NCBI GenBank assembly: GCA_038872135.1
Contig: JAVZGN010000002.1
Span: 41,368-105,367 of the forward strand
Source of the DNA: Candidatus Hadarchaeales archaeon
GTDB lineage: Archaea; Hadarchaeota; Hadarchaeia; Hadarchaeales; Hadarchaeaceae
Length of the DNA: 64,000 nucleotides
Direction: 5' to 3'
Part shown: positions 592-55,414 of the stretch, in pieces
Numbering within the stretch: position 1 is the stretch's first letter
Layout of the letters: each line of letters starts with the position of its first letter
Program-made: the position numbers and the translations under genes
The notes under the pieces: generated by a model
The model's database searches: none
Told to the model about the DNA's origin: nothing
Seen by the model: the letters and a program-made list of their open reading frames with translations, nothing else

Positions 592-615
592 ATCATCTTT
601 TGCGGAAAAAGTTTT

Positions 616-2901: not shown

Positions 2902-2983
2902 CTTCCCAAATTCTATTGAAGCCGAGGGTTAAATCGCTGCCGAAGGGGAAAGTTTTAGAGTTTGAGGGGAGAAGTTGGTTTGG

Positions 2984-3060: not shown

Positions 3061-3281
3061 CTTCTCGAGCCTCTTGTGCAGGCCCCTCTCTAGGTGTGCC
3101 CAGGCTATTCACTATGCAAAAAAACAAACTAATCTCAGGGCACAAATGAAGGGATGCCTTTAACCTACCACCCGGCTCGGCATTTGTCTGAAACTTTTTC
3201 GGCAAACTCTGGCATTTCGAAAGGTATTTAACCGCCGCCCCAAACTAATTGGAGGAAAAATAACAAAGGAGGCGAGAATGC

Positions 3282-3572: not shown

Positions 3573-3577
3573 ACTTG

Positions 3578-3597
3578 CCCCATTTTTTTATTTTTTG
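3578..3597 (+). terminator. oligo-T tract downstream of alba (putative archaeal intrinsic terminator)
   Basis: cccatttttttattttttg immediately after the alba stop. Archaeal termination uses T-runs. Confidence 0.35.
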
Positions 3598-3649
3598 ACG
3601 GCATTTCCAAAATCTCTAAATAACTGCTGCCGGAGTCTCTGGTGAAACG

Positions 3650-5685: not shown

Positions 5686-5687
5686 CT

Positions 5688-32804: not shown

Positions 32805-35800
32805 ATGGTGGCCACCATAGGCAAATTTAGAGATGGGGATTGGCCCCCTGCCAACTATTCTGGGACAGTTGAAGACAGGCGGGGGGCCCACTCTCCCCAA
32901 TCCCGAATCACTAATGCTAAATTAAATGACGTTCCTTTATCTGAAAAAGCCCTTTCTATATCCATGGTGATTTTAATTCTCCTCTCAACATTTTCCCCAA
33001 TGCTTCATCTGCCGCTGGCTTCTGCCGGAAGTCTAGTCGATAATTCAACGGAAAACTTTGCTCTGGGAGTCCACGAGAACACAGAAAACATCGCAAATAG
33101 GATAAGGCTCAAATCTGGGTACACTTCCGGCCAGTTCACCTCTCAGATTTTCGATGCTGGCGTCTGGGCCCATTGGGAGACCATGAACTGGGTGGAGAAC
33201 GAGCCATTCCTACTTATCCAAGAGAATGACGATGTGGGGGCCGAGCCGGAAACTCTGGCTGACGGAAGTTTGAGAAGAGGAGAGATCCTAGGCGGTTCGA
33301 TCACAGATGTGAGGGTGTTGGACGGAGTTTATGAAAACATTGGGGAGAACACCGAGGACAACTGTCTGAATTGGGAACACAAGATCGAGAACATTACCTT
33401 CGGCTTTGAGAACTATGTGTTGAAGATCAGGGGATACACTGGAGGGGATTATGAGAATGTAGGCATTTACATCTGGGAAAATCAAGGAGCAACATGGGGG
33501 TGGAGGTTTATCGACAATTTAACCTCCACCGAAAAGACAATCGAGTGGACAATTCCCAGAACTTCCATAGAAAATTACTTAGTCAGCGGCGCTATTTTAA
33601 TCAGATATTTCGAAAACAACACCGATGCCACTCAGACTTGGGTTGTCGTCGATCTCTGCATCCTCTCTGGGGAGAACAGGATTTTTTCAGAAGTGAAGAT
33701 TCAGGTTAGGGTTAGCTCAGACAACGTGGTGTGGACTGGGTGGGCTGGCCCAAGCGGAGACGACACAACATTTTTCACTTCTTCCCCGGCAAATCTCACA
33801 CCAATTCTCGACAGAAGATATATCCAGTACAGAGTTTACTTCACCAGTCCCTCTCCATCCCTCAGCGGAGGAGATGGGCCAACTTTCGGTGAGGTGGTGA
33901 TAAACTACTCCCCGGTCAGCCCACCATCTCTTCAATCGCCCTCCAATGGCTCCTGGACAAACGACAACACCCCAACATTTGATTGGAGTGATGTAGAGGA
34001 TGCCACAGAATATCATCTTCTGGTGGACAACGACTCCAACTTTTCATCCCCAGAGATAAATGTCTTAGTGGCCTCAAGCCAATTCACCTCAGCCACCGAG
34101 CTGCCAGATGCAACATACTACTGGAAGGTCAGAGCAAAAGTTGGCAGCGACCTCTCAACCGCCTTCTCCGCACCCTGGACGGTCAACATCGCCACAGCTC
34201 CACCGACCCCACCATCTCTCATCTCGCCGGACAACGATGTTACCCTCTTCGTCGACCAGCCACTCTTCAGATGGACCATCTCAACTGGCGTGGGTGCAAT
34301 TACCTACTGGCTTGTCATAGACAATGATCAGGATTTCTCCTCCCCGATCTACAACAAAACTGGAATCTCGGAGAACTCTCATGTAATTGAAAACAAACTT
34401 CCGGAGAACTTCACTCCCTACTACTGGAAGGTTGCCGCAGTGGACAACATCGGAAACCTGAGCTGGTCTGAGTGGAGGAAGTTTGAACTGAAGGTTTTCC
34501 CGTCTTCAGTTGTCGGCCAGATCTCTCCCTACTGGCAAACAGCGCCTGTAAGCATCTCAGTGACGGCAAGTGACAACGATGGAACAATTGAAAATGTCGA
34601 GCTGTGGTACAGGTACTCGGTGGACAACTCTGAGTGGGGCCCGTGGACCTTTTATGAAAACCGCTCCTCCCCGCCCTACTCCTTTACCTTCAACTTCCCA
34701 AATGGCCAGGGCCTTTATGAGTTTTACTCGATAGCCTGGGACTCTCGCGGGAACCGGGAAAATACCCCGCCGACCCCGGACACTGCCTGTGGATTTGACA
34801 ACGCTGCCCCGCCCGCCCCAACTCTGATTCAGCCGGAAAACGATGCTGTGATCGAAACACGGAAACCAACTTTCCGGTGGACCTCTGTGACCGATCTCTC
34901 CGGCGTCACCTACAATTTGATTGTGGATAACGAAAATACTCTAGCTCCCCCACATATTTACTTTAAGACAGGAATAACGGAAAACTCTCACACAACAGAA
35001 AACTCTCTCGACATTGGGGTATATTGGTGGAAGATTGTAGCGAGGGATGCTGTGGGAAATGAAAATTCTGAGAATGTTTTTATCTTCACGCTTAGACTCT
35101 GGAACAACGTTGAGAGATGGTCTGGGGTGATAAAAACAATTTCTGGGTGGATGACAGCCGAAGTTTGGTCTGTAACAATAAATGCACCTTATGGTGTTTA
35201 TGGATATCTGCTTGTAGAAGAATGGTCGGCTGTTGTTAATGCTCCACCACCTGTTTTCACAATTGTAGAGAGCTGGACTACCACTGTTGCTAGTGAAATC
35301 TCTGAATGGAAAGTTGTGGAATCATGGACGGCCAGCATCGGGAGTGGTGGGGGATGGATGCTAGCAGAGAGTTGGATGAGTACAGTGACGGCTCTCCCGC
35401 ATATTGGGTGGTCGCAGGTTGAAACCTGGAGTTTCACAGCGGTAACACTTGCAAGATGGGAACTCGTAGAGGGATGGAATGCTTCAATCACGGCTGCTGC
35501 GTATCTCGGCTGGCCGCAGGTAGAAATGTGGTCGGTGACAGTAGATGCCCTCCCCTATGTTGAATGGGTGCAAGCTGAGATCTGGGCGGAAACATTGACA
35601 ACCTCAGCCCAATGGTTTGTATGTGAGAGCTTCGCTGCGGATATCGTCGCTAATGTGGTCTCGGGATGGACATTTGTGGAAACTTGGACCCCCACCCTAA
35701 CCTCGGTAGTGTTGAGTGGATGGACACTGGACGAAAGCTGGATTGCTACGATTACCGCGGAGATCCTTCAACCGGTTCTCCTCCTGCCCCTAGACGGGGA

Positions 35801-38800
35801 GAACACCAACAACACAAACCCAACTTTCGACTGGGAGGACAACACCCTCCCGATAGACAACTTCGAGATTCAGATAGACGATGACCAGGACTTCTCGCCC
35901 CCGCTTGTGAGATGGGAAAACACTGGGGCGACGAGCCAGTACAGCCCCGGCTTCCTTCCTGATAACCTCTACTGGTGGAGGGTTAGGATGTGGAGGGGAG
36001 GGGTGCCGGGGGCCTGGGCTCAGAGAACTGTAAGAGTTGATACACTGCCACCAGAGAAACCATCTCTCCTCTCCCCCCTAGATGGAGAAAACGAAAATGA
36101 CAGCGCACCTAATCTCCGGTGGAGCGCCCCGCCCGAGAACTCCTTCCCGCTCACTTATTTTGTCCAAATCTCCAACTCCAAATACTTCGAGCCGGAAAAC
36201 ATTGCCACAAGCGCTTGGGTGATGGAAGAGAACTGGGAGGTGCCACCGGTGCTTCAGGAGAATGTATGGTACTGGTGGAGGGTGCTTGTGAAAGACAATG
36301 CTGGAAACACAGGGGACTATTCATCTGCCAGAAAATTCAAGATAGACACCATAGCACCGCCACCGCCCACCGTCATCTGGCCGGAGAACGACGGGTGGAC
36401 GACTACCCTGCCGAACCTAGACTGGGCGCCGGTGGTTGAAAATTCCCTCCCGGTGGTCTACTTCGGAGAAATTTCACTTTTCCCAGACTTCTCCGGCAGC
36501 CCGCTCAGAACCATTTCAACGCTGGACGACAACTGGAGCGTTTCACCGGAACTCTCAGAGGGCACATACTTCTGGAGGCTTAAGGTCAGGGACAATGCAG
36601 GGAACTTGGGAAGCTGGTCGCAGGGATTTGTCTTCAAAGTTGACAACACGCCACCAACCGCACCACAGCCACCCTTCACGCCACCAAACAACGGCTCAGC
36701 GCCCACTGGGTTGGTTCAATTCCAGTGGGCGGCGGCCTCCGACAGTGGCTCGGGCGTTGCAAAATACGCGATTCAGATAGATGATGAACCTAACTTCAAC
36801 CCACCGCTTGTGCATGAAAATGACAACGTTGTTGGAACTGCATACTCTTGCCTACTTGAATTTCCGAAGACATATTACTGGAAGGTAAAAGCCATTGATA
36901 ACGTTGGCAACGAAGGGGAGTGGTCTGAGACCCTCAGTTTCTTTGCCACCACCGTCTGGAGGTCCATTGAGAGCTGGACGGGCACAATAGCTACCTCTGC
37001 CGCCTATCAACAGGCCGAGTCTTGGGTAGCCACCATCATAACTGTTGCTCAGTGGACGCCAATTGAATTTTGTGTAGGAACGATCGCCACCAGCGCTTCC
37101 TGGAAGTCTGTTGAGAGCTGGACGGCAACAATAACCACTACAGCCACATGGCAGTTTACTGAAACATGGAGTGGTATAATTGCTACCGCAGCTGCTTGGC
37201 GGTTTGCTGAGACATGGGCTGGTACAATTGCTACTGCTGCTCAGTGGCAGCTAGTTGAATCATGGCAGGTAACCATTACAACATCGGCTCAGTGGCAGGT
37301 TGTCGAGAGTTGGACTGGAACGATAACGACTTCTGCTTCATGGCAGCAGGTTGAATCGTGGACTGCCACAATCGCTACTGCGGCCGTCTGGCAGGTTGTT
37401 GAATCCTGGATATGCACGATAAAGGTTGGTGGAGAATGGAAACTAGCAGAAAGCTGGTCCGTTAATATTGCCCCGCCTGCCGACTGGAACTACATTGAAA
37501 CTTGGGCGGCAAAAATTATCGCTATCATTCCCGCTCCAATCCCAGTTTCCCCGCGTAATGGAGAGAACAAAAACACGCTTCCAACCCTCCGCTGGGACAA
37601 CCTTCTCCCTGCAGACAACTTCCAGCTCCAGATAGACAACAACCCAGACTTTTCCTCACCAGAAAACGACCTTACAGTCTTTGAGAACTTCTACACACCG
37701 CCAGCCCTCCAAGACAACCTCTGGTACTGGAGAGTTAGGACATTCAGGAACAACGAGAACTCTGCTTGGTCCACTGTGTGGAAGTTCAGGATCGACAGGC
37801 TTGCTCCTGGAAAACCTGTGCTCGTTTCACCGAGCGATGGGGAGAACATCAACGACAACACTCCACTCTTCCGCTGGCAGGCCCCACCAGAAAACTCCTT
37901 CCCGCTCGTCTACACCATCCAGATATCCACAACTTCAACATTCGCTCCCGGAACATACAACGAGTTCGCCGTTACCTCTTACGAGCAGGAAGTGGGCTGG
38001 ATGGTTCCGCAAGAAAACCCCTTGGCCGACAACATCTACTACTGGAGGGTAAAGGCAAGAGACAACGCAGGCAACGAGGGAGCATTCTCTACACCCAGAA
38101 AGTTCAGGGTTGACACTGTTTCGCCAGTCATTACCCTCATCTCGCCGGCAAACGGTGAAACCGTCAGCTCGAGACCAACTCTGAGCTGGTCCCTCGTTTA
38201 TGCCGAAAATACCTTGCCCGTCGTCTATAACGCTTTGATCTCTGACACCAGCACCTTCGAATTCAGCTATGAAAATGTGAAAATAACCGAGAACTCATAC
38301 ACCACCCAGCCACTCGACGAAAGCGTTGGAACATATTACTGGAAGGTTTGCGCATGGGACAATGCAGGAAACTGGAGCGGATGGTCCGAGACGAGGTGGT
38401 TCACAGTCAGAACTGCGTGGAGACAGGCTGAGAGCTGGAACCTCATGCTGACTACTTCTAGCCAGTGGAATCTGGCTGAAAGCTGGTCTGCCGCTGCTAC
38501 GACTTCGGCCGAGTGGAGACAAGTTGAAGCATGGGGTACAGTGCTCAGTACAACTGCTAAGTGGTCGCAGGTTGAAACATGGCAAGCAACAATGGTCGCT
38601 TCTGCTAGCTGGCAACAGGTTGATGGCTGGGCTGTAACTCTAATAACCGCCGCAAACTGGCTCCTCGCTGAAACATGGCAGGGGATTGCAACGACTACCG
38701 CAAAGTGGTTCTCAACAGAATCTTGGACAGGGGCAGTAGCCACTGTCTCTATCTGGCAAACTATAGAGAACTGGTGGGCTATGGTAACTGCTCCAGTTTA

Positions 38801-41800
38801 TCATGGATGGATTAACGCTGAAAGTTGGAGCGGATACGTATCGTCTGGGGGTGGCTGGGTCCCCGCCGAATTCTGGAGCGCAACTATCGAAGGATGGGCT
38901 TTTTGGAAGATTGTTGAAAGCTGGTCAGACACGATAAACGCTAGCGCAGGTTGGAAAACCACTGAAACATGGCAAGTTCAAATATACTCGCCAATCCCAG
39001 CACCTGTTCTCATCTTCCCGCCAGATGGCTATAACTTCAGCCCAAGTGTCGGAGAGCTTGTGCTTAAGTGGGACAACTCGCAGCCGGCAGACAACTTTGA
39101 GATTCAAATAGACAACGATTTCGACTTTTCTTCCCCAGAAGTAGACGATTTCACCTCTACCGAAAACTTTGTGGTCCCGTCCCTGCCTGACAACCTCTAC
39201 TGGTGGAGAGTAAGGACCTTCAGAACTGGCGAGAATTCTCAGTGGTCCGAGGTTTGGAGGTTCCGCATCGATAACATTCCCCCAGCTGTTCCTTCCCTCC
39301 TCGCTCCTTCAGAAGGGGAGAACATCAACGATAACACTCCGCTTCTTAGGTGGCAGGCCCCGCCCGAGAACTCCTTCCCGCTCAGATATAGGGTTCAGGT
39401 TGCTACCGACAAATTCTTCACAAACATTGTGAGGGAGGCTCTCTGGACGGTCACGGCGGAGAACTGGGAGATCCCGGCCGAAAACTCGCTGCCAGACAAC
39501 ATGTACTACTGGAGAGTCGCGGCAAAAGATAACGCGGGCAACTACAGCATGTTCTCCTCCTATAGAAGCTTCAGGGTCGACACCCTCAAGCCCGCGGTTC
39601 CATCTCTCACTTCTCCACCCCATGGAGCTTGGATCGCCTTCCCATCTCTCACGTGGAGCAAAGTAACCGATATCTCTCTCCCGCTTCTCTATAACCTTCA
39701 GATAGCCTATGACAACGACTTCTCCCATCTCGTTGTGAACGTGGAGCTTCTGGATAACTCCTGGAGCGGGCCACTGGATGAGGGGTTATACTGGTGGAAA
39801 GTTCAGGCGAAAGATGGAGCCGGCAACCTGAGCGGATGGTCGGAAAACCGGAAGTTCATCGTTGACAACGCCCCGCCGACAAAGCCGGTTCTCTCTACAC
39901 CTGAAAACAGCACAGATGTGAATATAGGGACAATAACATTTGGATGGCAGGCTTCTGATCCTGGAGCTGGAATTTCAAAATACTGGATTCAGATAGATAA
40001 TGAACCTGACTTTGATAACACCTTTTTCGTGCACGAAAATCAGATGGTCACAGAAAATACCTATCAGTACATCATCTCAGTGAGCGGAAGATATTATTGG
40101 AGGGTAAGGGCAATAGACGGGGCTGGAAACATCGGTGAATGGTCGGACAACTGGAACTTCTTCGTATATGGCTGGAGCTCCATTGAAAGCTGGATGGCAA
40201 TGATCAGTGGGCCGAGCCAGTGGAGAAATGTTGAGAGCTGGAATGCAACTATCAAAACTAGGGCTTATATCTGGGAAAAGCTGGAGAACTGGAGCGCCAG
40301 CATTCAGGCCCCATTTTTGGCAGGGTGGAGTTTTGTGGAAAGCTGGCAGGTAGAATTCATTTCCGTTACAGTATCTTGGAGAGGTGTTGAAAGCTGGAGA
40401 GCGATTATAACTGGAAGAGTGATTGCTCCGGTACTTCTCTCCCCCTCGAATGGCCTGAACACATCTCAGAACCCACTCACATTCAGGTGGGAGAATGTCC
40501 ATCTCGCTGACAACTACAGGATCCAGATAGATAACAAGTCCCCGGTGGTTGCTTACGAAAATGACAATGTGGGGGCCGAGCCGGAAACCCTGGTTGACGG
40601 AAGCTTGAGAAGAGGAGAGATCCTAGGCGGCTCGATCACAGATGTAATGGTTCTGGACGGAGTTTATGAAAATATTGGAGAGAACACCGAGGACAACTGT
40701 CTGAATTGGGAACACAAGATCGAGAACATTACCTCCGGCTTTGAGAACTATGTGTTGAAAATTAAGGGATACACTGAAGGAGACAATGAAAACATCTTTG
40801 TGTACATCTGGGAGAATGACTTTGGGACTTGGAGATGGCGAGAAATTGGAACCATCACCTCAAATGAAACAACAATCGTCTGGGAAATGAAATACACAAA
40901 CATCGAGAAATATTTGATGGATGGCTCGATTTATGTCAGATATCTTGAAAACACTCCAGACTTGGTGCAAACGGTTCTTCACATAGATCTCTGCGTGCTG
41001 ATGGAAAATCTCGAGAATCTGACTCCACCATTTTTAGTTGACGCAACGAGCACTGACAACTTCTACACCTACACATTCCCCGAGAATGGGAGATACTGGT
41101 GGAGAGTAATGGCAATGGTCCAGGGGATTGTCGGAGATTGGTCAAACATCTGGACGGTTCGAGCCGATACTGTTGCTCCACAGCCGCCAATCCTGATATC
41201 CCCAATCCACCATGAAAATGTTAATGATACTACTCCACTTCTCCGCTGGCAGGCCCCGCCCGAGAATTCTCTTCCCGTGAAATTCTTTGTTCAGGTAGCA
41301 ACCGATCCAACATTCAATACTATCATTAGAGAAAACTGGGTTGTTGGAGAGCAATGGGAGGTGTATCCGCCACTACAGGAAAATGTTTACTACTGGATGG
41401 TGCTTGCGGTTGACAATGCAGGAAATTCCAGTCCTCCCTCTCCAACCTGGGAGTTTAGGGTTGACATAACATCTCCCGCCACGCCTGAACCCAAAGCCCC
41501 CCGTGATGGAGAAAATCTGAATGACAACACCCCAGAACTAGTGTGGACTAGTGTTTGGGATGATTCTCGGCCAGTAGTCTATCGCATTCAAGTAGCTTAT
41601 GATGAGGCATTCCAGTTTATGGTTCCTGGATGCGATGTTTATGTCTATGAAAACACTTGGACAACTCCCGAGCTTCCCAGCGAGAGAGTGTATCGATGGA
41701 GAGTCAAGGCCATAGACAATGCTGGAAATGAAAGTGGATGGTCTCCAACTCAAAGATTCAGGTTCGACTGCAGCCCGCCACTCCCCCCATCTCTTATCTC

Positions 41801-44390
41801 CCCAATGCCTGGCGAAAATGTTGGTAGCTCGACTCCAACCTTCTCTTGGGCGGCCCCATTCGAAAACTCAACCCCGATAAAATACTATCTTTCCATCAGC
41901 GATAATGAAGACTTCCCATACGAGAACGAAAACTCTGGATGGATCTCCTCAACTTCTTGGATAGTACAATCTCCTCTCTCAGACGGCATCTGGTACTGGA
42001 GGGTGAAGGCAAGAGACAACGCCGGCAACGAGGGAGCATTCTCTACACCCAGAAAGTTCAGGGTTGATACGCTTCCACCCGAGAATGTTTCTCTGCTGGA
42101 GCCGGAAAATGGCACGACGGTAGGTGATAACACTCCACTGCTGAAGTGGTCTAGTGCGGTAGACAACTCCCTTCCGGTAAAGTATGTTGTGGTTGTAGCT
42201 CGCGACCCCGCCTTCGCAGATAATGTCATCTCCTCTCCTTGGCTCGACAATGAAAATTGGGAAATCCCACTGGGGCTCTTGGACAACACATACTATTGGA
42301 AGGTGAGGGCGAGAGATAACGCAGGAAACATCTTTGAAACGCCATCTTGGTGGTTCATCGTTGAAAATGCCTCGCCCTTCATGCCACAGCTCGTCAGGCC
42401 TGCAAACGGAGCATGGGAAAACGACAACACCCCGACCTTCAAATGGGAAAACGCATGGGACATTTCACAACCAGTGGAATATTTTGTGTGGCTCTCCACC
42501 GACAACCTCTTTGAAAACATTGTACTCACCAGTGGCTGGGTGGAGAACGAGAACTGGACGGTTCCGGCGGAAAATTCCCTCTCGGATAATGTAAAATATT
42601 ACTGGAGGGTTCAGGCAAAAGACAACACCGGAAAGCTCAGCGAGAATTCTGAGACATGGTGGTTCATCGTCGACGTGGTGGTTCCGCCAAGGATAAACCT
42701 CTGGTCGCCGCCTAACGACGCCGTCTTCGAGAAGCTCACGATCACCTTCACTTGGGAAAGTGTGACCGATAATTCTGGAGTAACCTATCACATAGAAATA
42801 GATAATGAGCCCAGCTTCTCTAGCCCACTTGTGGATAGTAGATATACCACCAACGCCGTCCTGCCAAGTTACACCTTCCAAAAAACAGGGTGGTACTACT
42901 GGAGGGTAAGGACGATAGACGGAGCTGGAAATATCGGTGAATGGTCGGACAACTGGGTGATTTTGATTGGTAGATGGACTTTTCTAGAGCGCTGGAACGA
43001 GATAACAATCATTAGCCAGCCCACGGCGTGGAAATGGATAGAATCATGGGGATTAACTATAAAGGCTCCAAGCGGCTGGACCTTGGTCGAGAGCTGGCAG
43101 GCCACAGCCGTCGGAGCAATCCGATGGAGAGTTGCCGAAAGCTGGTCACTGAGCATTAGGACTAGGCCCTACTACTGGACTAAGGTTGAGGCATGGGAGA
43201 ATGTGGCAACATTGAGAGGATACCCGATTCCAGTTTGGAGATTTGCTGAAAACTGGGGAGGGATATCAATCATTTCTCTCCCACGTGAATTTAGATTTGT
43301 TGAAACTTTCAATGCTCAGATAAGGGCTCCGGCGGAAATAATTGACTTCCTCACCGCCATTGAGCGGCCACCGCCAAAGTGGGAGGAAATAGAGAAGATG
43401 CATGCGACCTTTAGGGCAAAAGAGCCGCTGCCAGGAATCCCTGTGACCGTCGGAAGGGTGATGCCCGGAACTACTTCAACGGCAGATTTTTCCGCCTTCG
43501 ACATCCCAGTGATCAAGATTGAAATAACTCTTAAGCCAGACGCCCCTGCCACAGAGATCGCTCCGATCGTCCTCTCAGCCAAGGCCGTTGACAACATCCC
43601 AGGAATATCTGGTCCTCCGGGCGAAACATACAAATTCTTGGAATTTGGTGTGGATGGGATACCACCGGAATACATTCAGAACTTCAGGGTGCGGTTCAGG
43701 GTTGAAAAGAGGTGGCTTCTCGGGATGGATGAGAAAACTCTCGAGGTGGTGAGGCTGAGCGGCAATTGGGTGCGAGTACCTTTTGAACTAATTAGCTCAA
43801 CTGAAGATTACAACATATATGAAATGGCTGGCGATGTCTATTCGACCTTTGCGATAATAGCGCAGAAAAAGACGCTACCACTTCAAGCCCCGCCGGTCGT
43901 CTTGATTCCAACTGGAGAAGCCCCATCCCCAAGTCCCATTGGATTATTTGTGCTTCTCGGCATAGGCGGGATAGCAGTGGGGCTGATGTTCTATCGTTCT
44001 GTCGCGAAAATAAGAATTGGCGGACTTGAGAAAGAGCTTGAGAAGCTCCAAAAGGCGCCTCCGACAAAAAAGGTGGCGGTGAGAGGTGTAAGGATAACGC
44101 TTCCCAAAGTGGAAAAAATGGAGATTAAGAGGATTGCCAGAGCGATTTGGGGTCCACCGCCAATCCCGAGAGTTCCTCCGCCTGAAAGACGCCTGGCCCC
44201 GCCAGAAATCGCGGCTGTGGAAACTCTCGAGAAGTTCATCGCTGAAAGGAGAAAGAAGGCGCCGAAAATAGCGGTTGAAAAAATTGAAGAGGTGAGAAAA
44301 AAGCTGAGCAAGGAGGAGATTGAGGTTTTCAAGACCCTAGAAAAATTTGTTGGAAAGAGAAGGAAAGCCATGAAAAGAGGAGGTGGATGA
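32805..44390 (+). CDS. giant cell-surface protein (3,861 aa): signal-like N-terminus, unknown ~150-aa domain (x2), ~35-40 fibronectin-III-like modules, five blocks of a 16-aa Trp-periodic repeat, C-terminal TM anchor and basic tail
   Basis: Uninterrupted 11,586-nt ORF. Hydrophobic segment MVILILLSTFSPMLHLPLASAG (alternative ATG at 32964). Fn3-like modules end in ...YYW[RK]V[RK]A.DNAGN.S.WS....F.VDT.[AP]P. Many N-x-S/T sequons. C-terminal TM IGLFVLLGIGGIAVGLMFY followed by a K/R-rich tail. Confidence 0.8.
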   Translation: MVATIGKFRDGDWPPANYSGTVEDRRGAHSPQSRITNAKLNDVPLSEKALSISMVILILLSTFSPMLHLPLASAGSLVDNSTENFALGVHENTENIANRIRLKSGYTSGQFTSQIFDAGVWAHWETMNWVENEPFLLIQENDDVGAEPETLADGSLRRGEILGGSITDVRVLDGVYENIGENTEDNCLNWEHKIENITFGFENYVLKIRGYTGGDYENVGIYIWENQGATWGWRFIDNLTSTEKTIEWTIPRTSIENYLVSGAILIRYFENNTDATQTWVVVDLCILSGENRIFSEVKIQVRVSSDNVVWTGWAGPSGDDTTFFTSSPANLTPILDRRYIQYRVYFTSPSPSLSGGDGPTFGEVVINYSPVSPPSLQSPSNGSWTNDNTPTFDWSDVEDATEYHLLVDNDSNFSSPEINVLVASSQFTSATELPDATYYWKVRAKVGSDLSTAFSAPWTVNIATAPPTPPSLISPDNDVTLFVDQPLFRWTISTGVGAITYWLVIDNDQDFSSPIYNKTGISENSHVIENKLPENFTPYYWKVAAVDNIGNLSWSEWRKFELKVFPSSVVGQISPYWQTAPVSISVTASDNDGTIENVELWYRYSVDNSEWGPWTFYENRSSPPYSFTFNFPNGQGLYEFYSIAWDSRGNRENTPPTPDTACGFDNAAPPAPTLIQPENDAVIETRKPTFRWTSVTDLSGVTYNLIVDNENTLAPPHIYFKTGITENSHTTENSLDIGVYWWKIVARDAVGNENSENVFIFTLRLWNNVERWSGVIKTISGWMTAEVWSVTINAPYGVYGYLLVEEWSAVVNAPPPVFTIVESWTTTVASEISEWKVVESWTASIGSGGGWMLAESWMSTVTALPHIGWSQVETWSFTAVTLARWELVEGWNASITAAAYLGWPQVEMWSVTVDALPYVEWVQAEIWAETLTTSAQWFVCESFAADIVANVVSGWTFVETWTPTLTSVVLSGWTLDESWIATITAEILQPVLLLPLDGENTNNTNPTFDWEDNTLPIDNFEIQIDDDQDFSPPLVRWENTGATSQYSPGFLPDNLYWWRVRMWRGGVPGAWAQRTVRVDTLPPEKPSLLSPLDGENENDSAPNLRWSAPPENSFPLTYFVQISNSKYFEPENIATSAWVMEENWEVPPVLQENVWYWWRVLVKDNAGNTGDYSSARKFKIDTIAPPPPTVIWPENDGWTTTLPNLDWAPVVENSLPVVYFGEISLFPDFSGSPLRTISTLDDNWSVSPELSEGTYFWRLKVRDNAGNLGSWSQGFVFKVDNTPPTAPQPPFTPPNNGSAPTGLVQFQWAAASDSGSGVAKYAIQIDDEPNFNPPLVHENDNVVGTAYSCLLEFPKTYYWKVKAIDNVGNEGEWSETLSFFATTVWRSIESWTGTIATSAAYQQAESWVATIITVAQWTPIEFCVGTIATSASWKSVESWTATITTTATWQFTETWSGIIATAAAWRFAETWAGTIATAAQWQLVESWQVTITTSAQWQVVESWTGTITTSASWQQVESWTATIATAAVWQVVESWICTIKVGGEWKLAESWSVNIAPPADWNYIETWAAKIIAIIPAPIPVSPRNGENKNTLPTLRWDNLLPADNFQLQIDNNPDFSSPENDLTVFENFYTPPALQDNLWYWRVRTFRNNENSAWSTVWKFRIDRLAPGKPVLVSPSDGENINDNTPLFRWQAPPENSFPLVYTIQISTTSTFAPGTYNEFAVTSYEQEVGWMVPQENPLADNIYYWRVKARDNAGNEGAFSTPRKFRVDTVSPVITLISPANGETVSSRPTLSWSLVYAENTLPVVYNALISDTSTFEFSYENVKITENSYTTQPLDESVGTYYWKVCAWDNAGNWSGWSETRWFTVRTAWRQAESWNLMLTTSSQWNLAESWSAAATTSAEWRQVEAWGTVLSTTAKWSQVETWQATMVASASWQQVDGWAVTLITAANWLLAETWQGIATTTAKWFSTESWTGAVATVSIWQTIENWWAMVTAPVYHGWINAESWSGYVSSGGGWVPAEFWSATIEGWAFWKIVESWSDTINASAGWKTTETWQVQIYSPIPAPVLIFPPDGYNFSPSVGELVLKWDNSQPADNFEIQIDNDFDFSSPEVDDFTSTENFVVPSLPDNLYWWRVRTFRTGENSQWSEVWRFRIDNIPPAVPSLLAPSEGENINDNTPLLRWQAPPENSFPLRYRVQVATDKFFTNIVREALWTVTAENWEIPAENSLPDNMYYWRVAAKDNAGNYSMFSSYRSFRVDTLKPAVPSLTSPPHGAWIAFPSLTWSKVTDISLPLLYNLQIAYDNDFSHLVVNVELLDNSWSGPLDEGLYWWKVQAKDGAGNLSGWSENRKFIVDNAPPTKPVLSTPENSTDVNIGTITFGWQASDPGAGISKYWIQIDNEPDFDNTFFVHENQMVTENTYQYIISVSGRYYWRVRAIDGAGNIGEWSDNWNFFVYGWSSIESWMAMISGPSQWRNVESWNATIKTRAYIWEKLENWSASIQAPFLAGWSFVESWQVEFISVTVSWRGVESWRAIITGRVIAPVLLSPSNGLNTSQNPLTFRWENVHLADNYRIQIDNKSPVVAYENDNVGAEPETLVDGSLRRGEILGGSITDVMVLDGVYENIGENTEDNCLNWEHKIENITSGFENYVLKIKGYTEGDNENIFVYIWENDFGTWRWREIGTITSNETTIVWEMKYTNIEKYLMDGSIYVRYLENTPDLVQTVLHIDLCVLMENLENLTPPFLVDATSTDNFYTYTFPENGRYWWRVMAMVQGIVGDWSNIWTVRADTVAPQPPILISPIHHENVNDTTPLLRWQAPPENSLPVKFFVQVATDPTFNTIIRENWVVGEQWEVYPPLQENVYYWMVLAVDNAGNSSPPSPTWEFRVDITSPATPEPKAPRDGENLNDNTPELVWTSVWDDSRPVVYRIQVAYDEAFQFMVPGCDVYVYENTWTTPELPSERVYRWRVKAIDNAGNESGWSPTQRFRFDCSPPLPPSLISPMPGENVGSSTPTFSWAAPFENSTPIKYYLSISDNEDFPYENENSGWISSTSWIVQSPLSDGIWYWRVKARDNAGNEGAFSTPRKFRVDTLPPENVSLLEPENGTTVGDNTPLLKWSSAVDNSLPVKYVVVVARDPAFADNVISSPWLDNENWEIPLGLLDNTYYWKVRARDNAGNIFETPSWWFIVENASPFMPQLVRPANGAWENDNTPTFKWENAWDISQPVEYFVWLSTDNLFENIVLTSGWVENENWTVPAENSLSDNVKYYWRVQAKDNTGKLSENSETWWFIVDVVVPPRINLWSPPNDAVFEKLTITFTWESVTDNSGVTYHIEIDNEPSFSSPLVDSRYTTNAVLPSYTFQKTGWYYWRVRTIDGAGNIGEWSDNWVILIGRWTFLERWNEITIISQPTAWKWIESWGLTIKAPSGWTLVESWQATAVGAIRWRVAESWSLSIRTRPYYWTKVEAWENVATLRGYPIPVWRFAENWGGISIISLPREFRFVETFNAQIRAPAEIIDFLTAIERPPPKWEEIEKMHATFRAKEPLPGIPVTVGRVMPGTTSTADFSAFDIPVIKIEITLKPDAPATEIAPIVLSAKAVDNIPGISGPPGETYKFLEFGVDGIPPEYIQNFRVRFRVEKRWLLGMDEKTLEVVRLSGNWVRVPFELISSTEDYNIYEMAGDVYSTFAIIAQKKTLPLQAPPVVLIPTGEAPSPSPIGLFVLLGIGGIAVGLMFYRSVAKIRIGGLEKELEKLQKAPPTKKVAVRGVRITLPKVEKMEIKRIARAIWGPPPIPRVPPPERRLAPPEIAAVETLEKFIAERRKKAPKIAVEKIEEVRKKLSKEEIEVFKTLEKFVGKRRKAMKRGGG
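33222..33680 (+). repeat. copy 1 of intragenic duplication (unknown ~150-aa domain of the giant protein)
   Basis: About 90% nucleotide identity over the first ~230 nt with 40556..41012, including a 55-nt exact run gagaacaccgaggacaactgtctgaattgggaacacaagatcgagaacattacct. Confidence 0.8.
35095..35770 (+). repeat. W16 block 1: ~14 tandem 16-codon (48-nt) Trp-periodic repeats inside the giant ORF
   Basis: Protein repeats such as VESWTTTVASEISEWK / VESWTASIGSGGGWML / AESWMSTVTALPHIGWSQ... with Trp at i and i+6 in each 16-residue unit. Ends at ...ILQPVLLLP before the next Fn3. Confidence 0.75.
36950..37535 (+). repeat. W16 block 2: ~12 tandem 16-codon Trp-periodic repeats (cleanest block)
   Basis: WQFTETWSGIIATAAA / WRFAETWAGTIATAAQ / WQLVESWQVTITTSAQ / WQVVESWTGTITTSAS / WQQVESWTATIATAAV / WQVVESWICTIKVGGE / WKLAESWSVNIAPPAD... 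The 48-nt periodicity is visible in the DNA (tggcag...gaatc/gtgg...). Confidence 0.85.
38410..39000 (+). repeat. W16 block 3: ~12 tandem Trp-periodic repeats
   Basis: WRQAESWNLMLTTSSQ / WNLAESWSAAATTSAE / WRQVEAWGTVLSTTAK / WSQVETWQATMVASAS / WQQVDGWAVTLITAAN ... Ends at ...YSPIPAPV. Confidence 0.8.
40170..40430 (+). repeat. W16 block 4: ~5 tandem Trp-periodic repeats
   Basis: WSSIESWMAMISGPSQ / WRNVESWNATIKTRAY / IWEKLENWSASIQAPFLAG / WSFVESWQVEFISVTVS / WRGVESWRAIITGRVIAP. Confidence 0.75.
40556..41012 (+). repeat. copy 2 of intragenic duplication (unknown ~150-aa domain)
   Basis: See 33222..33680. Protein NDNVGAEPETLVDGSLRRGEILGGSITDVMVLDGVYENIGENTEDNCLNWEHKIENITSGFENYVLKIKGYTEGD... versus the N-terminal copy. 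Confidence 0.8.
42970..43345 (+). repeat. W16 block 5: ~8 degenerate Trp-periodic repeats
   Basis: WTFLERWNEITIISQPTA / WKWIESWGLTIKAPSG / WTLVESWQATAVGAIR / WRVAESWSLSIRTRPYY / WTKVEAWENVATLRGYPIPV / WRFAENWGGISIISLP... Confidence 0.7.
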
Positions 44391-45033
44391 GGTGGAGCCA
44401 GAATTTCGCCTGACGAGGGCGGGAAAAATTAAATGGAAGCTGAAGAAAAACTGGAAAGTTATCGCGGCAATTATTCTATCTATATCAATAGCGGTGGGAG
44501 TTTATCTCTCAACCCTCCAGCCATCCAAGATTTCCAGAAGAGCTAAGATTACTGCTCCCTATGTTGAATTTGAAAGTAGAAGGGGGTTCTTTGCCGTGCG
44601 TAAATACCAGGAGTCTGGAATCGAAAACATTTACATCGTTAAATTTCCCAATTTTGACCCGACCAGGGATGCGATGTCTCAGCTGGAAAATGTTGATGCA
44701 ATCATTTCGAGTAGCGGGCAAACTGTGGATGTTTCGGACAATGCCCTTTTTGCTATAGTTGTGGCCGTTAGAGCAAAGGCTCCAGACAACATCGCATATG
44801 TGGTCAAAGAGAATATGTGGGTCTGGCTCGGGGCTAGTGGAGCATTCACCATCCCGAACTCTCTGGCTCCAGACTGGAAAGAATATGTTTTTGAGAGTTC
44901 TGGATATGGAACTGCGAATGGTTACATGAGAGTAAATGTGATCTGGGACAACGATGGCGAGGGATATATACTGTACGCAGGGCAACATCTCTTCATAGAC
45001 AACATCGTCTTGAAATTTTTCAGTCCAAGATAG
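44383..45033 (+). CDS. single-pass membrane protein (N-terminal TM anchor, extracellular beta-rich domain); paralogue of 58128..58724
   Basis: 216 aa. TM WKVIAAIILSISIAVGVYLSTL. Shared motifs with the paralogue: ENIYI[VM]K, [SP]GQTVD[VI], YVFE[SN]SGYGTANGY[MV]R[VI]N. Start overlaps the giant ORF stop by 8 nt. Confidence 0.6.
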   Translation: MDEVEPEFRLTRAGKIKWKLKKNWKVIAAIILSISIAVGVYLSTLQPSKISRRAKITAPYVEFESRRGFFAVRKYQESGIENIYIVKFPNFDPTRDAMSQLENVDAIISSSGQTVDVSDNALFAIVVAVRAKAPDNIAYVVKENMWVWLGASGAFTIPNSLAPDWKEYVFESSGYGTANGYMRVNVIWDNDGEGYILYAGQHLFIDNIVLKFFSPR

Positions 45034-45081: not shown

Positions 45082-45879
45082 TTGGCGGACCGAAAGATGA
45101 AACAACCTTCAATACCTGAACTTTTGAGACCGAAGCGAGAAAGGGGAATAGAAATAAAACCGAAACATGGGAGAGTGGTTGGGCTTTTTTCCTGCAAGGG
45201 AGGTGTTGGAAAGACTACCACCACGGCAAATCTCAGTCTCGCCCTTTTGGAAAAACTTGGAACGAATATCTTGGCTTTCGACGCAAACATCGGTGCCCCT
45301 AACCTTGGACTGCATTTTGGCGAGCTAACTCCAAAAATAACAGTTCATGATGTCATCTCCGCGGAGCTTCCGGTGGAAAATGCTATTCTCACAGTTCAGG
45401 GGTTGAAGATGATTTTGGGATCGATAGCCTTTGAAGATGAAGTTCACCTGGTAGATCTCAGGGAGCTGATAAACCCCTTGAGAAAGATGTTCAAACTTGT
45501 CATCGTCGACTCTGCCCCGGGGATAGGAAGCGAGGTGGTCGCCGCCCTGAAGGCCTGTGACGAGATAATAATTGTCACGGACCCATATGTCCCAACGATC
45601 GCAAGCACATTGAAGACATTTCGGGCAGCAGAAAAATATAAGGTTCCAATCTTCGGTGTTGTTGTGAACAGGGTGGCGGGGGACCCGTTTGAGCTTCCGA
45701 TCAAAGAAATAAGAAAGGCATTAGGGTGGCCTGTGGTGGCGGTGGTCCCGGAAGACAAGAAAGTGAGGGAAGCAACTGCTGCCGGCATCCCTGTAGTAAA
45801 ATATGCGCCGAAGTCGCCGGCCGCCAAAGAGTTTGTTATGCTGGCGAACACTGTGTATGAACATCTCAGAAAGGGGTAG
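45082..45879 (+). CDS. MinD/ParA-family P-loop ATPase (archaeal MinD-like)
   Basis: 265 aa. Deviant Walker A LFSCKGGVGKTTT, Walker B/VIVDSAPG, standard MinD-like layout. Confidence 0.85.
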   Translation: MADRKMKQPSIPELLRPKRERGIEIKPKHGRVVGLFSCKGGVGKTTTTANLSLALLEKLGTNILAFDANIGAPNLGLHFGELTPKITVHDVISAELPVENAILTVQGLKMILGSIAFEDEVHLVDLRELINPLRKMFKLVIVDSAPGIGSEVVAALKACDEIIIVTDPYVPTIASTLKTFRAAEKYKVPIFGVVVNRVAGDPFELPIKEIRKALGWPVVAVVPEDKKVREATAAGIPVVKYAPKSPAAKEFVMLANTVYEHLRKG

Positions 45880-49410: not shown

Positions 49411-50013
49411 GTGAGAGAAGCAAAATTCTGGCAGATAAAACCCGAGATAAGAATTCTCGGGGTGGACGATGGATCCTTCGCTCCGCATATAAGAACCGTG
49501 CCTCTTGTTGCAACTGTTTTCAGGGGGGGAAAGTGGTTTGATGGAGTAATGAAGACAGATATTGCGAAGGATGGAGAGGATGTCACAGAAAAGCTGATTG
49601 CAATGGTGAGGAAGAGCCGCCATCTTGGCCAGCTCAGGGTGATAATGACAGATGGAATAACATTTGGTGGTTTCAATGTCCTCGACGCTAGGAGAGTTTT
49701 CAGGGAGCTGGGGCTTCCCGTAATAGCCGTTTCGAGGAGACGGCCGAACATGGTGGAAATAAAGAGAGCGATTAAGCACCTCCCTGGCTGGAAGAAAAGG
49801 TGGGAAATTCTAAGAAAGACGGGAAAGATCTACAGCGTCAAGACGATGCACAGGGGTGGAGAGATATTCATCCAGCCCATCGGGATAAAAATCGGAGATG
49901 CGAGAAGGATAGTTGAGATGAGTTCTATTAGGAGCTTGATTCCCGAGCCGATAAGAGCGGCCCACATGATCGCCACAGCAATTGCGATGGGGGAGAGTCA
50001 TGGTAGGGTTTAG
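49411..50013 (+). CDS. DUF99 (UPF0215, endonuclease-V-like fold) family protein
   Basis: 200 aa. ILGVDDGSF ... VIMTDGITFGGFNV pattern of the archaeal DUF99 family. Confidence 0.65.
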   Translation: MREAKFWQIKPEIRILGVDDGSFAPHIRTVPLVATVFRGGKWFDGVMKTDIAKDGEDVTEKLIAMVRKSRHLGQLRVIMTDGITFGGFNVLDARRVFRELGLPVIAVSRRRPNMVEIKRAIKHLPGWKKRWEILRKTGKIYSVKTMHRGGEIFIQPIGIKIGDARRIVEMSSIRSLIPEPIRAAHMIATAIAMGESHGRV

Positions 50014-50590
50014 AAAACTTTTGAAAGGATTTCTTGCTCATGGAACTGTAAGGTGGTTTTTGGAACTCCTTCTGACCCTAGGAGTTCTATACTTTGCCAT
50101 GGCCGGGACGATGATTTTGATTTTCAGAACTAATTCCTACTGGATGGGGGTGATCTCTGGGAGCATGAAACATGAAGGTGAAGGATGGAGGGAATATTTT
50201 GAAAATGGGAGGGTGAGAGAGGCCTTCTTGATAGCAGAAGGTGCCCCCGTCTTTTATCAGACGACCTACGACACAAAGAAATTTCCGATTCAGGGAGGTT
50301 TTGAACGCGGAGATCTCCTGATCATTCAGGGTGTGTCTTCTGTGGCCGAGATTTCCGTTGGAGATGTCATCATCATAGACAGGCGCCCGCGCAACCCTGT
50401 AGCCCTCACCCACAGGGTTCTGGGTGTGTGGCAGGAAAATGGGAAGGTGAGATTTACAACAAAGGGGGACCACAATCCATATCTAATAGAGCCTGATGAT
50501 GTCGTCGTCCTGCCTGAAAAGATAGTTGGGAAGGTGATTTTCGTTGTCCCAAAGCTCGGATTCTTCTCCCTCTGGAGCCAGGGAAAATAA
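49982..50590 (+). CDS. signal peptidase I, archaeal (S26/Sec11 type)
   Basis: N-terminal TM anchor. Catalytic-Ser context ISGSMKHE, GDLLIIQG, and TKGDHN box typical of S26 peptidases. Confidence 0.7.
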   Translation: MRWGRVMVGFRKLLKGFLAHGTVRWFLELLLTLGVLYFAMAGTMILIFRTNSYWMGVISGSMKHEGEGWREYFENGRVREAFLIAEGAPVFYQTTYDTKKFPIQGGFERGDLLIIQGVSSVAEISVGDVIIIDRRPRNPVALTHRVLGVWQENGKVRFTTKGDHNPYLIEPDDVVVLPEKIVGKVIFVVPKLGFFSLWSQGK

Positions 50591-54130: not shown

Positions 54131-55414
54131 GTGGAAAAACAAGAAATAATTCCAAGGGATATTTTAACAAAATTCGAGAAATTGCTAGAAAGACGAGAGG
54201 CTCTTGCGATAAAAGGTCCCCGACAATCGGGGAAGACAACTCTTTTGAAAATCTTGGCGAGAAGACTTGAGAACGCAGGCAAAGTCGTTTTTCTGAATTT
54301 CGAGGACCCCGATGTGCTCGAAGCCTTTGAGAGGGACCCCAAGGGTTATGTGCGGAGCTTCATGCTCGGTCCCGAAAGGCATTACTTCTTGATGGACGAG
54401 TTCCACTACATCAGTGAACCTGGAAAGAAACTCAAGTTACTCTACGACACCTTCGAGAATGCGAAGTTCATCGTCACCGGTAGTTCCTCCCTAGAACTCG
54501 GTGGGGCGATGGCGAAATTTTTGGTGGGTCGAGTGTTTTTCTTTGAGTTGCTTCCCTTCAGCTTCCACGAGTTCCTAGTGGCAAAAAACGAGAGATTGGC
54601 TAAGATTTATGAGAAAAAGAACGAAGCCATCAAAGCCTTCATGCTGGGAGAAGAAGTAGAACTGGAAGAAGATATCTTCGTGAAAGAGCTTGAGCCCCTT
54701 TTCCTTGAGTACCTCACTTACGGCGGCTATCCGGCTGTGGTCTTGGCTAACGATGCGGAGACAAAGCGAATGATCCTGAAAGGCATATACGATACATACA
54801 TTTCCAAAGATGTGATTGAGTTTTTGAAATTCACCGACGCGTTCAAGTACAGAGATACTATCAGGATCCTAGCAGCGTCGGTTGGAGGATTGCTAAACTA
54901 CCAAGCGGTGGGCTCGGCGGTCCAAAGCTACTTCAAGGAGCTGAAGCGGATCCTCTCGATTCTCTCCGAAACGTACGTGATAATCTTGCTCCGACCATTC
55001 TCAAGGAACCCGAGAACCGAGCTAAGGAAAAGCCCAAAGGTCTATTTCTTTGACTTGGGGCTCAGGAACTATGTGCTAAACAATTTTAACCCACTCGACA
55101 GGAGGGCTGATGCCGGAGCGATGGTTGAAAACTTCGTGCTGCTGGAGCTAATGCGTGCCTTCCCAGCTGAGTCCTTAAATTACTGGCGGACGATAGCAAA
55201 AGCCGAGGTAGACTTCGTGCTGAGGGTCGGGGAAAAATTGATACCGATAGAGGCCAAATATCAAAGTTTCGCGGAACCAAAAATCTCAAGAAGCCTCCGG
55301 AGCTTCATCCACACTTACAGCCCAGAGCGCGCTTTGGTTGTGACCCGCGATAGGTGGGCGAGGAGTGAAATTGATGGAACAAAAGTGCTTTTCGCTCCCG
55401 CCTGTTACATTTAA
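54131..55414 (+). CDS. AAA+ ATPase with C-terminal DUF4143 domain (AAA_14/DUF4143 family)
   Basis: 427 aa. Walker A GPRQSGKTTLLK, Walker B FLMDEFHY, C-terminal DUF4143-like region (WRT...EVDFVL). Confidence 0.85.
   Translation: MEKQEIIPRDILTKFEKLLERREALAIKGPRQSGKTTLLKILARRLENAGKVVFLNFEDPDVLEAFERDPKGYVRSFMLGPERHYFLMDEFHYISEPGKKLKLLYDTFENAKFIVTGSSSLELGGAMAKFLVGRVFFFELLPFSFHEFLVAKNERLAKIYEKKNEAIKAFMLGEEVELEEDIFVKELEPLFLEYLTYGGYPAVVLANDAETKRMILKGIYDTYISKDVIEFLKFTDAFKYRDTIRILAASVGGLLNYQAVGSAVQSYFKELKRILSILSETYVIILLRPFSRNPRTELRKSPKVYFFDLGLRNYVLNNFNPLDRRADAGAMVENFVLLELMRAFPAESLNYWRTIAKAEVDFVLRVGEKLIPIEAKYQSFAEPKISRSLRSFIHTYSPERALVVTRDRWARSEIDGTKVLFAPACYI

Follow-up and report, generated by a model that had tools for sequence, protein, structure and literature searches.

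A previously undescribed family of small membrane proteins encoded beside W16-repeat surface proteins in Hadarchaeota

Small β-rich proteins, secreted or membrane-anchored, that are encoded together with a dedicated peptidase of the ER type (SipW/Sec11 class) and an anchoring or accessory component are found within Bacillus subtilis's tapA-sipW-tasA operon, which includes the dedicated SipW (PMC9245690), and in the archaeal AbpA/AbpB bundling pili. Sec11, together with the eukaryotic SPC22/23 (Spc3), offers a second point of comparison, consisting of a single-pass, N-in β-sandwich protein of ~180-215 aa beside an S26B peptidase with one N-terminal TM helix, both of which have lookalikes in the clusters discussed here. 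In the archaeal type IV pilus loci of clade 1, a FleN/MinD ATPase occurs with large DUF2341 "adhesins", minor pilins and extra membrane proteins (Makarova et al. 2016, PMC4858521); the passages on these loci make no mention of W16 repeats. Like them, the loci described below have a MinD/FleN-like ATPase gene close to genes for small membrane proteins and large DUF2341 surface proteins. They may be regarded as an adhesin system of the dedicated-accessory type, in which the family of small proteins is new. This system differs from curli (CsgB/CsgA) and from the β-helix adhesins of autotransporter and two-partner-secretion systems with their dedicated helpers. It belongs to an archaeal single-membrane setting, its helper is not a solenoid homologue but an Ig-like, predicted bitopic protein, and its putative solenoid lies inside a TM-anchored protein of several domains. 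Any nucleating role would be purely conjectural.

The window, i.e., the whole 64-kb stretch of DNA that was analysed, contains exactly two genes of the family and two proteins with W16 arrays (16-residue tryptophan repeats), each small gene being adjacent to a large one. A tblastn search returned no family member in the window besides proteins A and B, and no third W16 array was seen there by a motif and spacing scan. The first large partner is a giant surface protein of 3861 aa (32805..44390, plus strand). It has a signal sequence at the N-terminus, numerous Ig/fn3-like domains, W16 repeats in five blocks with about 48 motif matches, a C-terminal TM helix and a cytoplasmic tail of ~130 aa. 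The block at residues 1385-1585 (36957..37559, plus strand) is representative of the five, the others occurring at 35112-35774, 38412-39029, 40167-40439 and 42972-43304. A W16 block of the giant was modelled as a β-solenoid with moderate confidence (pLDDT 71.5). Protein A, a member of the A-type clade, follows on the same strand (44392..45033, 213 aa). The maximal ORF of 216 aa (44383..45033) proposed for it in an earlier note does exist and opens at GTG 44383, but the NCBI model of a 100% identical protein from a Hadarchaeales MAG (P0001, 213 aa) starts at GTG 44392, located 2 nt past the TGA stop of the giant (44388-44390) and preceded at 7 nt by the Shine-Dalgarno-like sequence GGAGGTG.

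Protein B, of the B-type clade, has the coordinates and length initially given (58128..58724, 198 aa) and is encoded on the minus strand, which had been left unstated. Its stop lies, as reported, 2 nt before the ATG (58125) of a DUF2341/Kelch/Big_1 surface protein (55411..58125, minus strand), for which 904 rather than 905 residues were counted. This protein starts with a signal peptide and a DUF2341 domain, continues with six Kelch repeats and then about three W16 repeats, and ends with two Big_1 domains, a C-terminal domain and, last, a TM anchor. The presence of W16 in both large neighbours, already proposed on first inspection, is borne out by the alignment of residues 422-487 of the Kelch protein with residues 1464-1528 of the giant (41% identity, E 1e-7). 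Each large partner comes with a signal peptide and a C-terminal TM anchor of its own, so an anchoring role for the small proteins is not needed.

The proposed paralogy of A and B holds, with 36% identity over 183 aa in BLASTP (E 9e-24), and the motifs ENIYI[VM]K, GQTVD and YVFE[SN]SGYGTANGY..N..DN.G are common to both. Each protein displays basic residues and then a single hydrophobic helix at the N-terminus, in agreement with the N-terminal TM anchor first noticed, and a β-sandwich follows. In A, the basic cytoplasmic N-terminus leads to a TM helix (about residues 21-40), which a short linker connects to a β-sandwich of ~150 aa; the AF2 model consists of an N-terminal helix and a nine-strand sandwich (pLDDT 86.9). 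Neither A nor B has a match in Pfam or NCBIfam. They are members of a new, previously undescribed protein family. With 106 clusters in 1.84 billion representatives it is rare, and it has been found in Hadarchaeota and in one unassigned, metagenome-only lineage. The members are predicted to be small bitopic proteins whose N-terminus faces the cytoplasm and whose single TM helix is followed by an Ig-like β-sandwich of ~150 aa outside the cell. Many carry cytoplasmic zinc ribbons at the N-terminus, while A-type proteins start with a conserved basic amphipathic helix; both features speak for a functional N-terminal domain rather than a signal peptide to be discarded.

The helix-plus-β-sandwich architecture also resembles that of archaeal pilins, and the earlier note had mentioned a minor pilin-like subunit among its options. 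Such a subunit, its class III signal peptide cleaved by a prepilin peptidase, would be built into a type IV pilus that displays the DUF2341 adhesin, either at the tip or at the base, as could be imagined from the clade 1 loci in the passages cited above; a weak Peptidase_A24 gene directly upstream at one distant locus (L062) and a Pilin_N gene nearby at another (L029) point in the same direction. Against this reading, the class III (FlaFind-type) motif is absent from A and B and occurs in only 4 of 98 representatives, there is no Pilin_N match, the TM helix is followed by Pro-rich linkers, and long N-termini with a zinc ribbon occur in some members. Moreover, no PilB/FlaI-type ATPase gene was recognised among the annotated neighbours of family genes, and, unlike in the clade 1 loci, no pilus ATPase or pilin gene was recognised in the window. 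With both class III motif and Pilin_N missing, the pilin reading is largely refuted and must be considered extremely unlikely.

The pairing with large surface proteins extends well beyond the window. B-type orthologues, with identities down to 52%, all directly precede a DUF2341-Kelch protein, as does a B-type copy in another species (L007, L008, L012 and L026). In a distant subfamily, that of the unassigned lineage, sharing 18-25% identity with A (A2 alignment), 18 of the 21 determinable loci have an ORF of 450 aa or more on the same strand, which starts between -8 and +63 nt from the small gene's stop, compared to a background of 9% (P ~3e-16, uncorrected for the relatedness of the loci). 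At 11 more loci the downstream ORF is cut by the contig end, and 29 of 32 informative loci fit an arrangement in which the small gene sits directly upstream of a very large ORF on the same strand. Each of the 7 complete distant partners contains 16-residue tryptophan repeats (e.g., WNITLSNSS.WQ.I.D and GWNTFGNTSS) that resemble by eye the Hadarchaeota repeat W..VESW.GT, and nine distant partners possess a DUF2341 domain. In addition, the clades of the small protein track the type of partner. The expectation of a conserved partner of W16 proteins is thus upheld by the B-type orthologues and the distant subfamily. Direct adjacency to the surface gene is also the rule in these two groups, but not for A-type and B'-type copies in most Hadarchaeota, where the immediate neighbour is a paralogue of the S26 signal peptidase.

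A rival reading takes the adjacency as inherited synteny around an independent membrane or surface protein, devoid of any specific functional link. In its favour, many Hadarchaeota loci are orthologues with neighbours such as PPDK or Nre in common, which means that they do not count as independent cases. Nevertheless, the pairing is found in both gene orders and persists where all other neighbours differ, at identities as low as those of the distant subfamily; the narrow intergenic gaps and the W16 repeat common to the partners equally speak against synteny, which appears very unlikely as an explanation. Recurrence in such distant relatives indicates that the small protein is probably a dedicated partner of W16 surface proteins.

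The S26 neighbours deserve separate attention. An S26 signal peptidase I paralogue lies directly downstream of a family gene in 10 of 12 Hadarchaeota species loci. Most other Hadarchaeota harbour two ER-type S26 paralogues in the cluster, one active and one catalytically dead, alongside the MinD-like ATPase gene and the giant gene, the latter one to three genes away from the A-type or B'-type copy. Both peptidase genes are missing from the lineage to which the window belongs. A-type copies are paired with the dead paralogue (Ser nucleophile lost in 8 of 9) and lack an AXA site, while B'-type copies are paired with the intact S26a and their TM helix ends in a conserved AXA-type G(L)GAWA(L) motif resembling the TasA cleavage site GGGTWA|A. 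This immediate vicinity means that processing-related models fit these copies as well. According to one of them, in the manner of TasA/TapA and SipW, an ER-type peptidase would remove the TM helix as a long signal peptide, and the released β-sandwich would either polymerise or decorate the giant, forming part of a matrix or fibre. The adjacent S26 gene, the GAWA motif of B'-type copies and the precedent of the tapA-sipW-tasA operon agree with this proposal. However, the GAWA motif is missing from A and B themselves. Nor is there a dedicated S26 gene in their vicinity or elsewhere within the 64 kb, the housekeeping Sec11 (49982..50590) being the only such peptidase. The loss of the nucleophile in the A-type partner, the zinc-ribbon or conserved basic N-terminal domains, which are unusual for a leader to be discarded, and the failure to match TIGR04088 also count against it. 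A search for TasA homology was negative and, unlike TasA, camelysin and AbpA, with which it has no sequence or fold relationship, the family accompanies a main structural protein predicted to be a giant TM-anchored β-solenoid adhesin rather than a donor-strand fibre. A catalytically dead paralogue and loci devoid of a dedicated peptidase further separate it from the TasA/AbpA systems. Cleavage into a secreted subunit is accordingly judged unlikely.

Alternatively, the small protein could act as a non-catalytic adaptor comparable to Spc3, docking on the ER-type peptidase or its dead paralogue to recruit or gate the processing of the giant's unusual signal sequence. Size and topology (N-in, one TM helix, extracytoplasmic β-sandwich) are those of SPCS3 (7P2P chain B), and the tandem pairs of small protein and S26-like protein, one peptidase active and the other dead, bring to mind the subunits of a complex rather than an enzyme and its substrates. 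Yet homology to Spc3 is undetectable (hhalign of the family versus SPCS3, probability 0.3%). Unlike Spc3, the family is tied to particular giant proteins: an adjacent S26 gene is missing for B-type copies and throughout the distant subfamily, yet both still stand beside their large protein, and the window provides no dedicated S26 gene either. An adaptor function is therefore quite improbable.

The explanation tentatively preferred is that A and B are cognate membrane-anchored partners or assembly factors of W16 β-solenoid surface proteins, with one small copy per large protein. The W16 array would form a tryptophan-ladder β-solenoid of 16 residues per turn. Both proteins would be made from the same operon, and the small one, remaining uncleaved in the membrane, would bind its partner on the outer face through its ectodomain, most plausibly at the W16 solenoid, the sole element common to all partner types. 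Once bound, it could serve as a cap, a folding nucleus or a "light chain", while its conserved cytoplasmic tail, whether basic amphipathic helix or zinc ribbon, could tie the complex to cytoplasmic factors, for instance the co-encoded MinD-like ATPase. In the window, this archaeal MinD/FleN-like P-loop ATPase (45082..45879, plus strand) is encoded 48 nt downstream of A and scores 187 bits against minD_arch, just below the cut-off of 201.75. The gene is kept in the same cluster of other Hadarchaeota, the orthologue of the L017 cluster being 74% identical.

The small membrane proteins A and B are encoded on opposite strands of the window, each directly beside a large surface protein. The maximal open reading frame of A occupies 44383..45033 (plus strand); its likelier start is the GTG at 44392, located 2 nt past the TGA stop (44388-44390) of the 3861-aa giant surface protein and 7 nt past a GGAGGTG site, which gives a protein of 213 aa, the length of the NCBI model. 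The NCBI protein (P0001, locus tag QW179_05225), encoded on a 113-kb contig of a Candidatus Hadarchaeales MAG, is 100% identical to A. In B (58128..58724, minus strand, 198 aa), the stop codon is followed after a gap of 2 nt by the ATG (58125) of a large protein of 904 aa. The earlier note had recognized both reading frames and the adjacency of B to its partner, and these stand; its start for A inside the end of the giant probably has to be moved beyond the giant stop, its 905 aa for the partner become 904, and the pair lies on the minus strand. The paralogy it proposed for A and B is borne out by 36% identity over 183 aligned residues (E 9e-24), together with the occurrence in both proteins of the motifs it quoted. 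A tblastn search of the 64-kb window disclosed no family copies other than A and B, neither of which matches any Pfam or NCBIfam family, and the family profile retrieved nothing but noise from the PDB sequences.

The giant (32805..44390, plus strand) consists of Ig_Rha78A_N, Big_13, Big_3_2 and fn3-like domains and five blocks of a 16-residue tryptophan repeat, W..VESW.ATI.T.A. (W16), predicted to fold into a beta-solenoid, and terminates in a transmembrane (TM) helix followed by a cytoplasmic tail of ~130 aa. The 904-aa partner of B, the Kelch protein, possesses a good N-terminal signal peptide (MQRFSRAFLVIFLLSMLLSSPYAAAA/G), a DUF2341 domain, six Kelch repeats and, toward its C-terminal TM anchor, two Big_1 domains; between Kelch and Big_1 lie ~3 W16 repeats that share 41% identity (E 1e-7) with the W16 region of the giant. 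No Pfam or NCBIfam model matched W16 in the scans made, the giant being left out of the NCBIfam scan. No further W16 array was seen in a motif and spacing scan of the window, and since the window contains only two W16 proteins and only two genes of the small family, the relation is two-to-two, with each pair adjacent. Anchoring, which the earlier note had listed among the possible roles, would make the small proteins comparable to SlaB; it has been downgraded, since a C-terminal TM anchor is already present in each of the two large partners. Two additional features concern these genes. The giant harbors an internal duplication of ~150 aa (residues ~141-290 and ~2586-2735, encoded at ~33225-33680 and ~40560-41010 of the window, plus strand), with the sequence NDDVGAEPETL.DGSLRRGEILGGSITDV..., highly similar by eye and covered in neither copy by a Pfam family. 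The B-Kelch pair is flanked in the window, as in the related loci L007 and L008, by an AAA_14/DUF4143 ATPase gene on one side (54131..55414, plus strand) and a pyruvate phosphate dikinase gene on the other (58942..61602, plus strand), a synteny limited to close relatives.

Structure prediction, one of the checks suggested earlier, yielded an AlphaFold2 model (18-sequence alignment, pLDDT 86.9) in which helices 9-19 and 21-40, the second corresponding to the TM helix, precede a sandwich of ~9 strands. The three family alignments (A1, A2 and A3), the profile search and the model all agree on a single TM helix with a cytoplasmic N-terminus and a beta-sandwich of ~150 aa, marked by the motifs SGIENIYI, FDIVVAVR and N..DN.G.GY. 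According to the positive-inside rule, the basic character of the segment preceding the helix places the N-terminus in the cytoplasm. This segment is amphipathic and conserved in the A-type proteins, and is replaced in many relatives by a zinc ribbon (CxxC...CxxC, 45-60 aa); such extensions argue that the protein is stably bitopic and that its cytoplasmic end is functional.

The family is rare. Word-indexed searches returned 11 proteins related to A and 6 related to B, those with a named source all belonging to Hadarchaeales, and the profile search that had been called for, run exhaustively against 1.84 billion representatives with a threshold of E<=1e-3, retrieved no more than 106 clusters. 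Almost all of them are single-domain proteins of up to ~300 aa, among which the shorter ones represent fragments; the two exceptions are the weak matches P0110 (378 aa) and P0116 (1122 aa). Scanning one genome per GTDB species gave 12 loci, assigned to Hadarchaeota or Hadesarchaea except for one short contig labelled Hodarchaeaceae. A 9.9-kb contig carrying the label Candidatus Hodarchaeaceae (Asgard; L028, JASEJC010000028.1) encodes a B'-type protein with GLGAWAL, which could reflect either horizontal transfer or mis-binning. A distant subfamily, 18-25% identical to A in the broad alignment A2, shares FDIVV.VR and N..DN.G.GY (E 3e-9 to 9e-4 in the whole library) and has members only on metagenome contigs. 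A viral or phage origin was ruled out by the absence of relatives in IMG/VR and in phage records.

Three clades, designated A-type, B-type and B'-type, are resolved in a neighbor-joining tree. The B-type genes, including B of the window, lie directly upstream of a DUF2341-Kelch-Big_1 gene (L007, L008, L012 and L026), the L012 protein showing 52% identity and an overlapping start. The A-type and B'-type genes belong to a conserved cluster ordered B', S26a, A, S26b and MinD-like ATPase, followed by a convergent giant W16 gene. This cluster occurs in L001/L017, L003-5, L011 and L020, variants of it in L006/L021, L018, L019 and L022, and single pairs in L023-L025 and L027; one genome, MAG157, holds both the cluster (L020) and the B-Kelch pair (L026). 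The S26 genes, which match TIGR02228 and PF10502, encode paralogues of the archaeal/ER-type signal peptidase I. They are found in L003 (9462-9914 and 10750-11202) and also in L001, L006, L011 and L017-L027. The Ser, His and Asp motifs are retained in S26a and in the single-pair copies; in S26b, 8 of 9 copies carry D, G or N instead of the Ser nucleophile and three have lost the His, so that S26b is predicted from its sequence to be a conserved pseudo-peptidase. In the window and in L013, a 79% identical relative, the order is giant, A and MinD, with neither S26 nor B' gene, and this arrangement is derived. The sole S26 gene of the 64-kb window, adjoining neither A nor B, is a housekeeping Sec11/SipW-class signal peptidase I (49982..50590, plus strand; TIGR02228, 58.6 bits) embedded in an information-processing cluster together with Csl4, RpoL, a NUDIX protein, TFS, PCNA and the primase large subunit.

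Two other explanations involve a signal peptidase, the genetic linkage with Sec11-type peptidases being seen in relatives only. The small proteins could be secreted subunits processed in the manner of TasA by SipW, an idea attractive for the B'-type, in which S26a is active and the TM helix ends in a conserved AXA-like G(L)GAWA(L) reminiscent of the TasA site GGGTWA/A, but poorly suited to A and B of the window. No such site occurs in the A-type and B-type proteins, Pfam searches with A and B at E<=0.1 gave no TasA or Peptidase_M73 match, and no NCBIfam match to the SipW-cognate signal peptide TIGR04088 was obtained with A, B or one B' copy. The alignment of A2 with TasA (its sequence verified against 8AUR and 5OF1) reached an hhalign probability of 2.5% over the signal-peptide region alone, and the jelly-roll fold of TasA or AbpA was not found in the small proteins. 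Homology with TasA is accordingly rejected, and processing of this type is considered unlikely for the family. Alternatively, the small proteins might act as a non-catalytic partner of the signal peptidase similar to Spc3, which would fit their topology and the tandem arrangement in which one peptidase is active and the other dead; yet hhalign of A2 against human SPCS3 gave a probability of 0.3%, a weak test with a single-sequence template, by which homology was rejected, and most family members lack an adjacent peptidase. We regard this second explanation as improbable. The zinc ribbon and the G(L)GAWA(L) sequence occur together in B'-type proteins of L003 (8561-9367), L024 (6813-7520), L028 (8956-9735) and others.

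The distant subfamily reproduces the pairing in a different setting. Among 52 metagenome loci, 32 with at least 300 nt downstream of the family gene were counted. In 18 of these, a same-strand open reading frame of 450 aa or more, the longest reaching at least 2230 aa, starts between -8 and +63 nt from the stop; the rest comprise 11 reading frames cut by the contig end, two smaller complete ones and one locus with none. An extra locus, L029, has such a reading frame of at least 1115 aa 3 nt downstream. Set against a background of 9% for reading frames of at least 450 aa on the same contigs, 18 of 21 corresponds to P ~3e-16, relatedness being ignored. These partners bear a signal or anchor sequence at the N-terminus and a TM anchor at the C-terminus, nine of them contain DUF2341, and tandem 16-residue tryptophan repeats occur in all seven complete partners and in 13 of the 18 long ones (e.g., WNITLSNSS.WQ.I.D and GWNTFGNTSS...I.Q), their resemblance to the Hadarchaeota W16 unit being by eye only. 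Upstream lie genes of small polytopic membrane proteins and of another large protein containing DUF2341, the neighbors are mostly ORFans, and no S26 gene was found in these loci. An N-terminal signal motif, LG(T/F)..V.P.F(N/D)(K/R), is conserved in the L030-L081 partners (e.g., L033 788-6256, L040 4126-10815 and L059 644-3721), and the abundance of N-x-S/T sequons in their tryptophan repeats, as in WNITLSNSS, suggests heavy N-glycosylation. A weak homologue of Peptidase_A24 (prepilin peptidase) is encoded directly upstream of the family member in L062 (7257-7982), and a Pilin_N gene and an integrase-like fragment lie near that of L029.

Together with the Hadarchaeota clusters, these loci support, through co-occurrence across genomes, the dedicated accessory suggested earlier for the W16 proteins, because the W16 array is the sole element common to all partner types and because the small gene tracks it through very different neighborhoods and in both gene orders. 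Mere synteny, i.e., neighborhood devoid of functional connection, is very unlikely. Still less probable is a minor pilin, another option of the earlier note, for which the resemblance of DUF2341 and FleN/MinD to the content of archaeal clade 1 type IV pilus loci (PMC4858521) offers a lead only. The FlaFind-type class III signal ([KRDE][GA][ALIFQMVED][ILMVTAS] plus a hydrophobic stretch, searched by regular expression and hydropathy) is absent from A and B, occurs in 4 of 98 family representatives and was rejected for the window proteins. Neither A nor B matches Pilin_N (PF07790), and no PilB/FlaI ATPase, prepilin peptidase or other pilus machinery was recognized among the window neighbors (giant, MinD, Nre, PPDK and AAA_14 protein).

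The reading we prefer, while holding it as tentative and at somewhat less than an even chance, is that of a partner which would stay uncleaved and anchored in the membrane, its ectodomain binding the W16 solenoid of the cognate large protein as a cap, a folding nucleus or a 'light chain', and its cytoplasmic tail possibly coupling to the co-encoded MinD-like ATPase. The analysis shows the paralogy, the fold class, the gene pairing, the sharing of the repeat and the solenoid prediction; we infer both the binding and its site, as well as the link to MinD. A broader and rather unlikely extension would be an archaeal system, so far unrecognized, by which giant adhesins with a tryptophan-ladder beta-solenoid are built and in which the bitopic Ig-like protein would both pair with an ER-type signal peptidase, or with the dead paralogue of this enzyme, and nucleate or cap the W16 array of the cognate giant, the MinD-like ATPase positioning the assembly. 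If true, it would represent an archaeal counterpart of both curli-type nucleation and the eukaryotic Sec11-Spc3 pairing.

Neither accessory genes dedicated to a neighboring adhesin nor dedicated peptidases of the SipW type are a new concept; what is new here is the protein family itself, without Pfam or NCBIfam match in the scans made. Hadarchaeota are uncultured subsurface archaea and, to our knowledge, their cell envelope is essentially unknown. A testable handle on it is provided by a rare, unannotated family of small proteins accompanying giant adhesin-like proteins in lineages far apart, by a new 16-residue tryptophan repeat forming a predicted beta-solenoid stalk, and by a pair of active and inactive ER-type signal peptidase paralogues located in the same cluster in most Hadarchaeota. 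Should the partner bind or nucleate the solenoid, a new assembly route for very large surface proteins of a single-membrane cell would emerge, and the pairing of peptidase and pseudo-peptidase could bear on the origin of multi-subunit signal peptidase complexes.

Some clusters display peculiarities of their own. In the metagenome contig L011 (7554-7949, 8166-9281 and 9794-10447), the B' gene is truncated beside an inserted TnpB/OrfB_IS605 element and the A-type gene is split by a stop or frameshift; either the cluster is decaying or the assembly is wrong. The cluster of one Hadarchaeota lineage (L006) adjoins the gene of a very large protein matching CarboxypepD_reg and HerA/DUF87 ATPase (1-4399), and that of a 316-aa coiled-coil protein; at the position corresponding to the large protein, L021 contains a 2076-aa reading frame (3-6233) with no family assigned.
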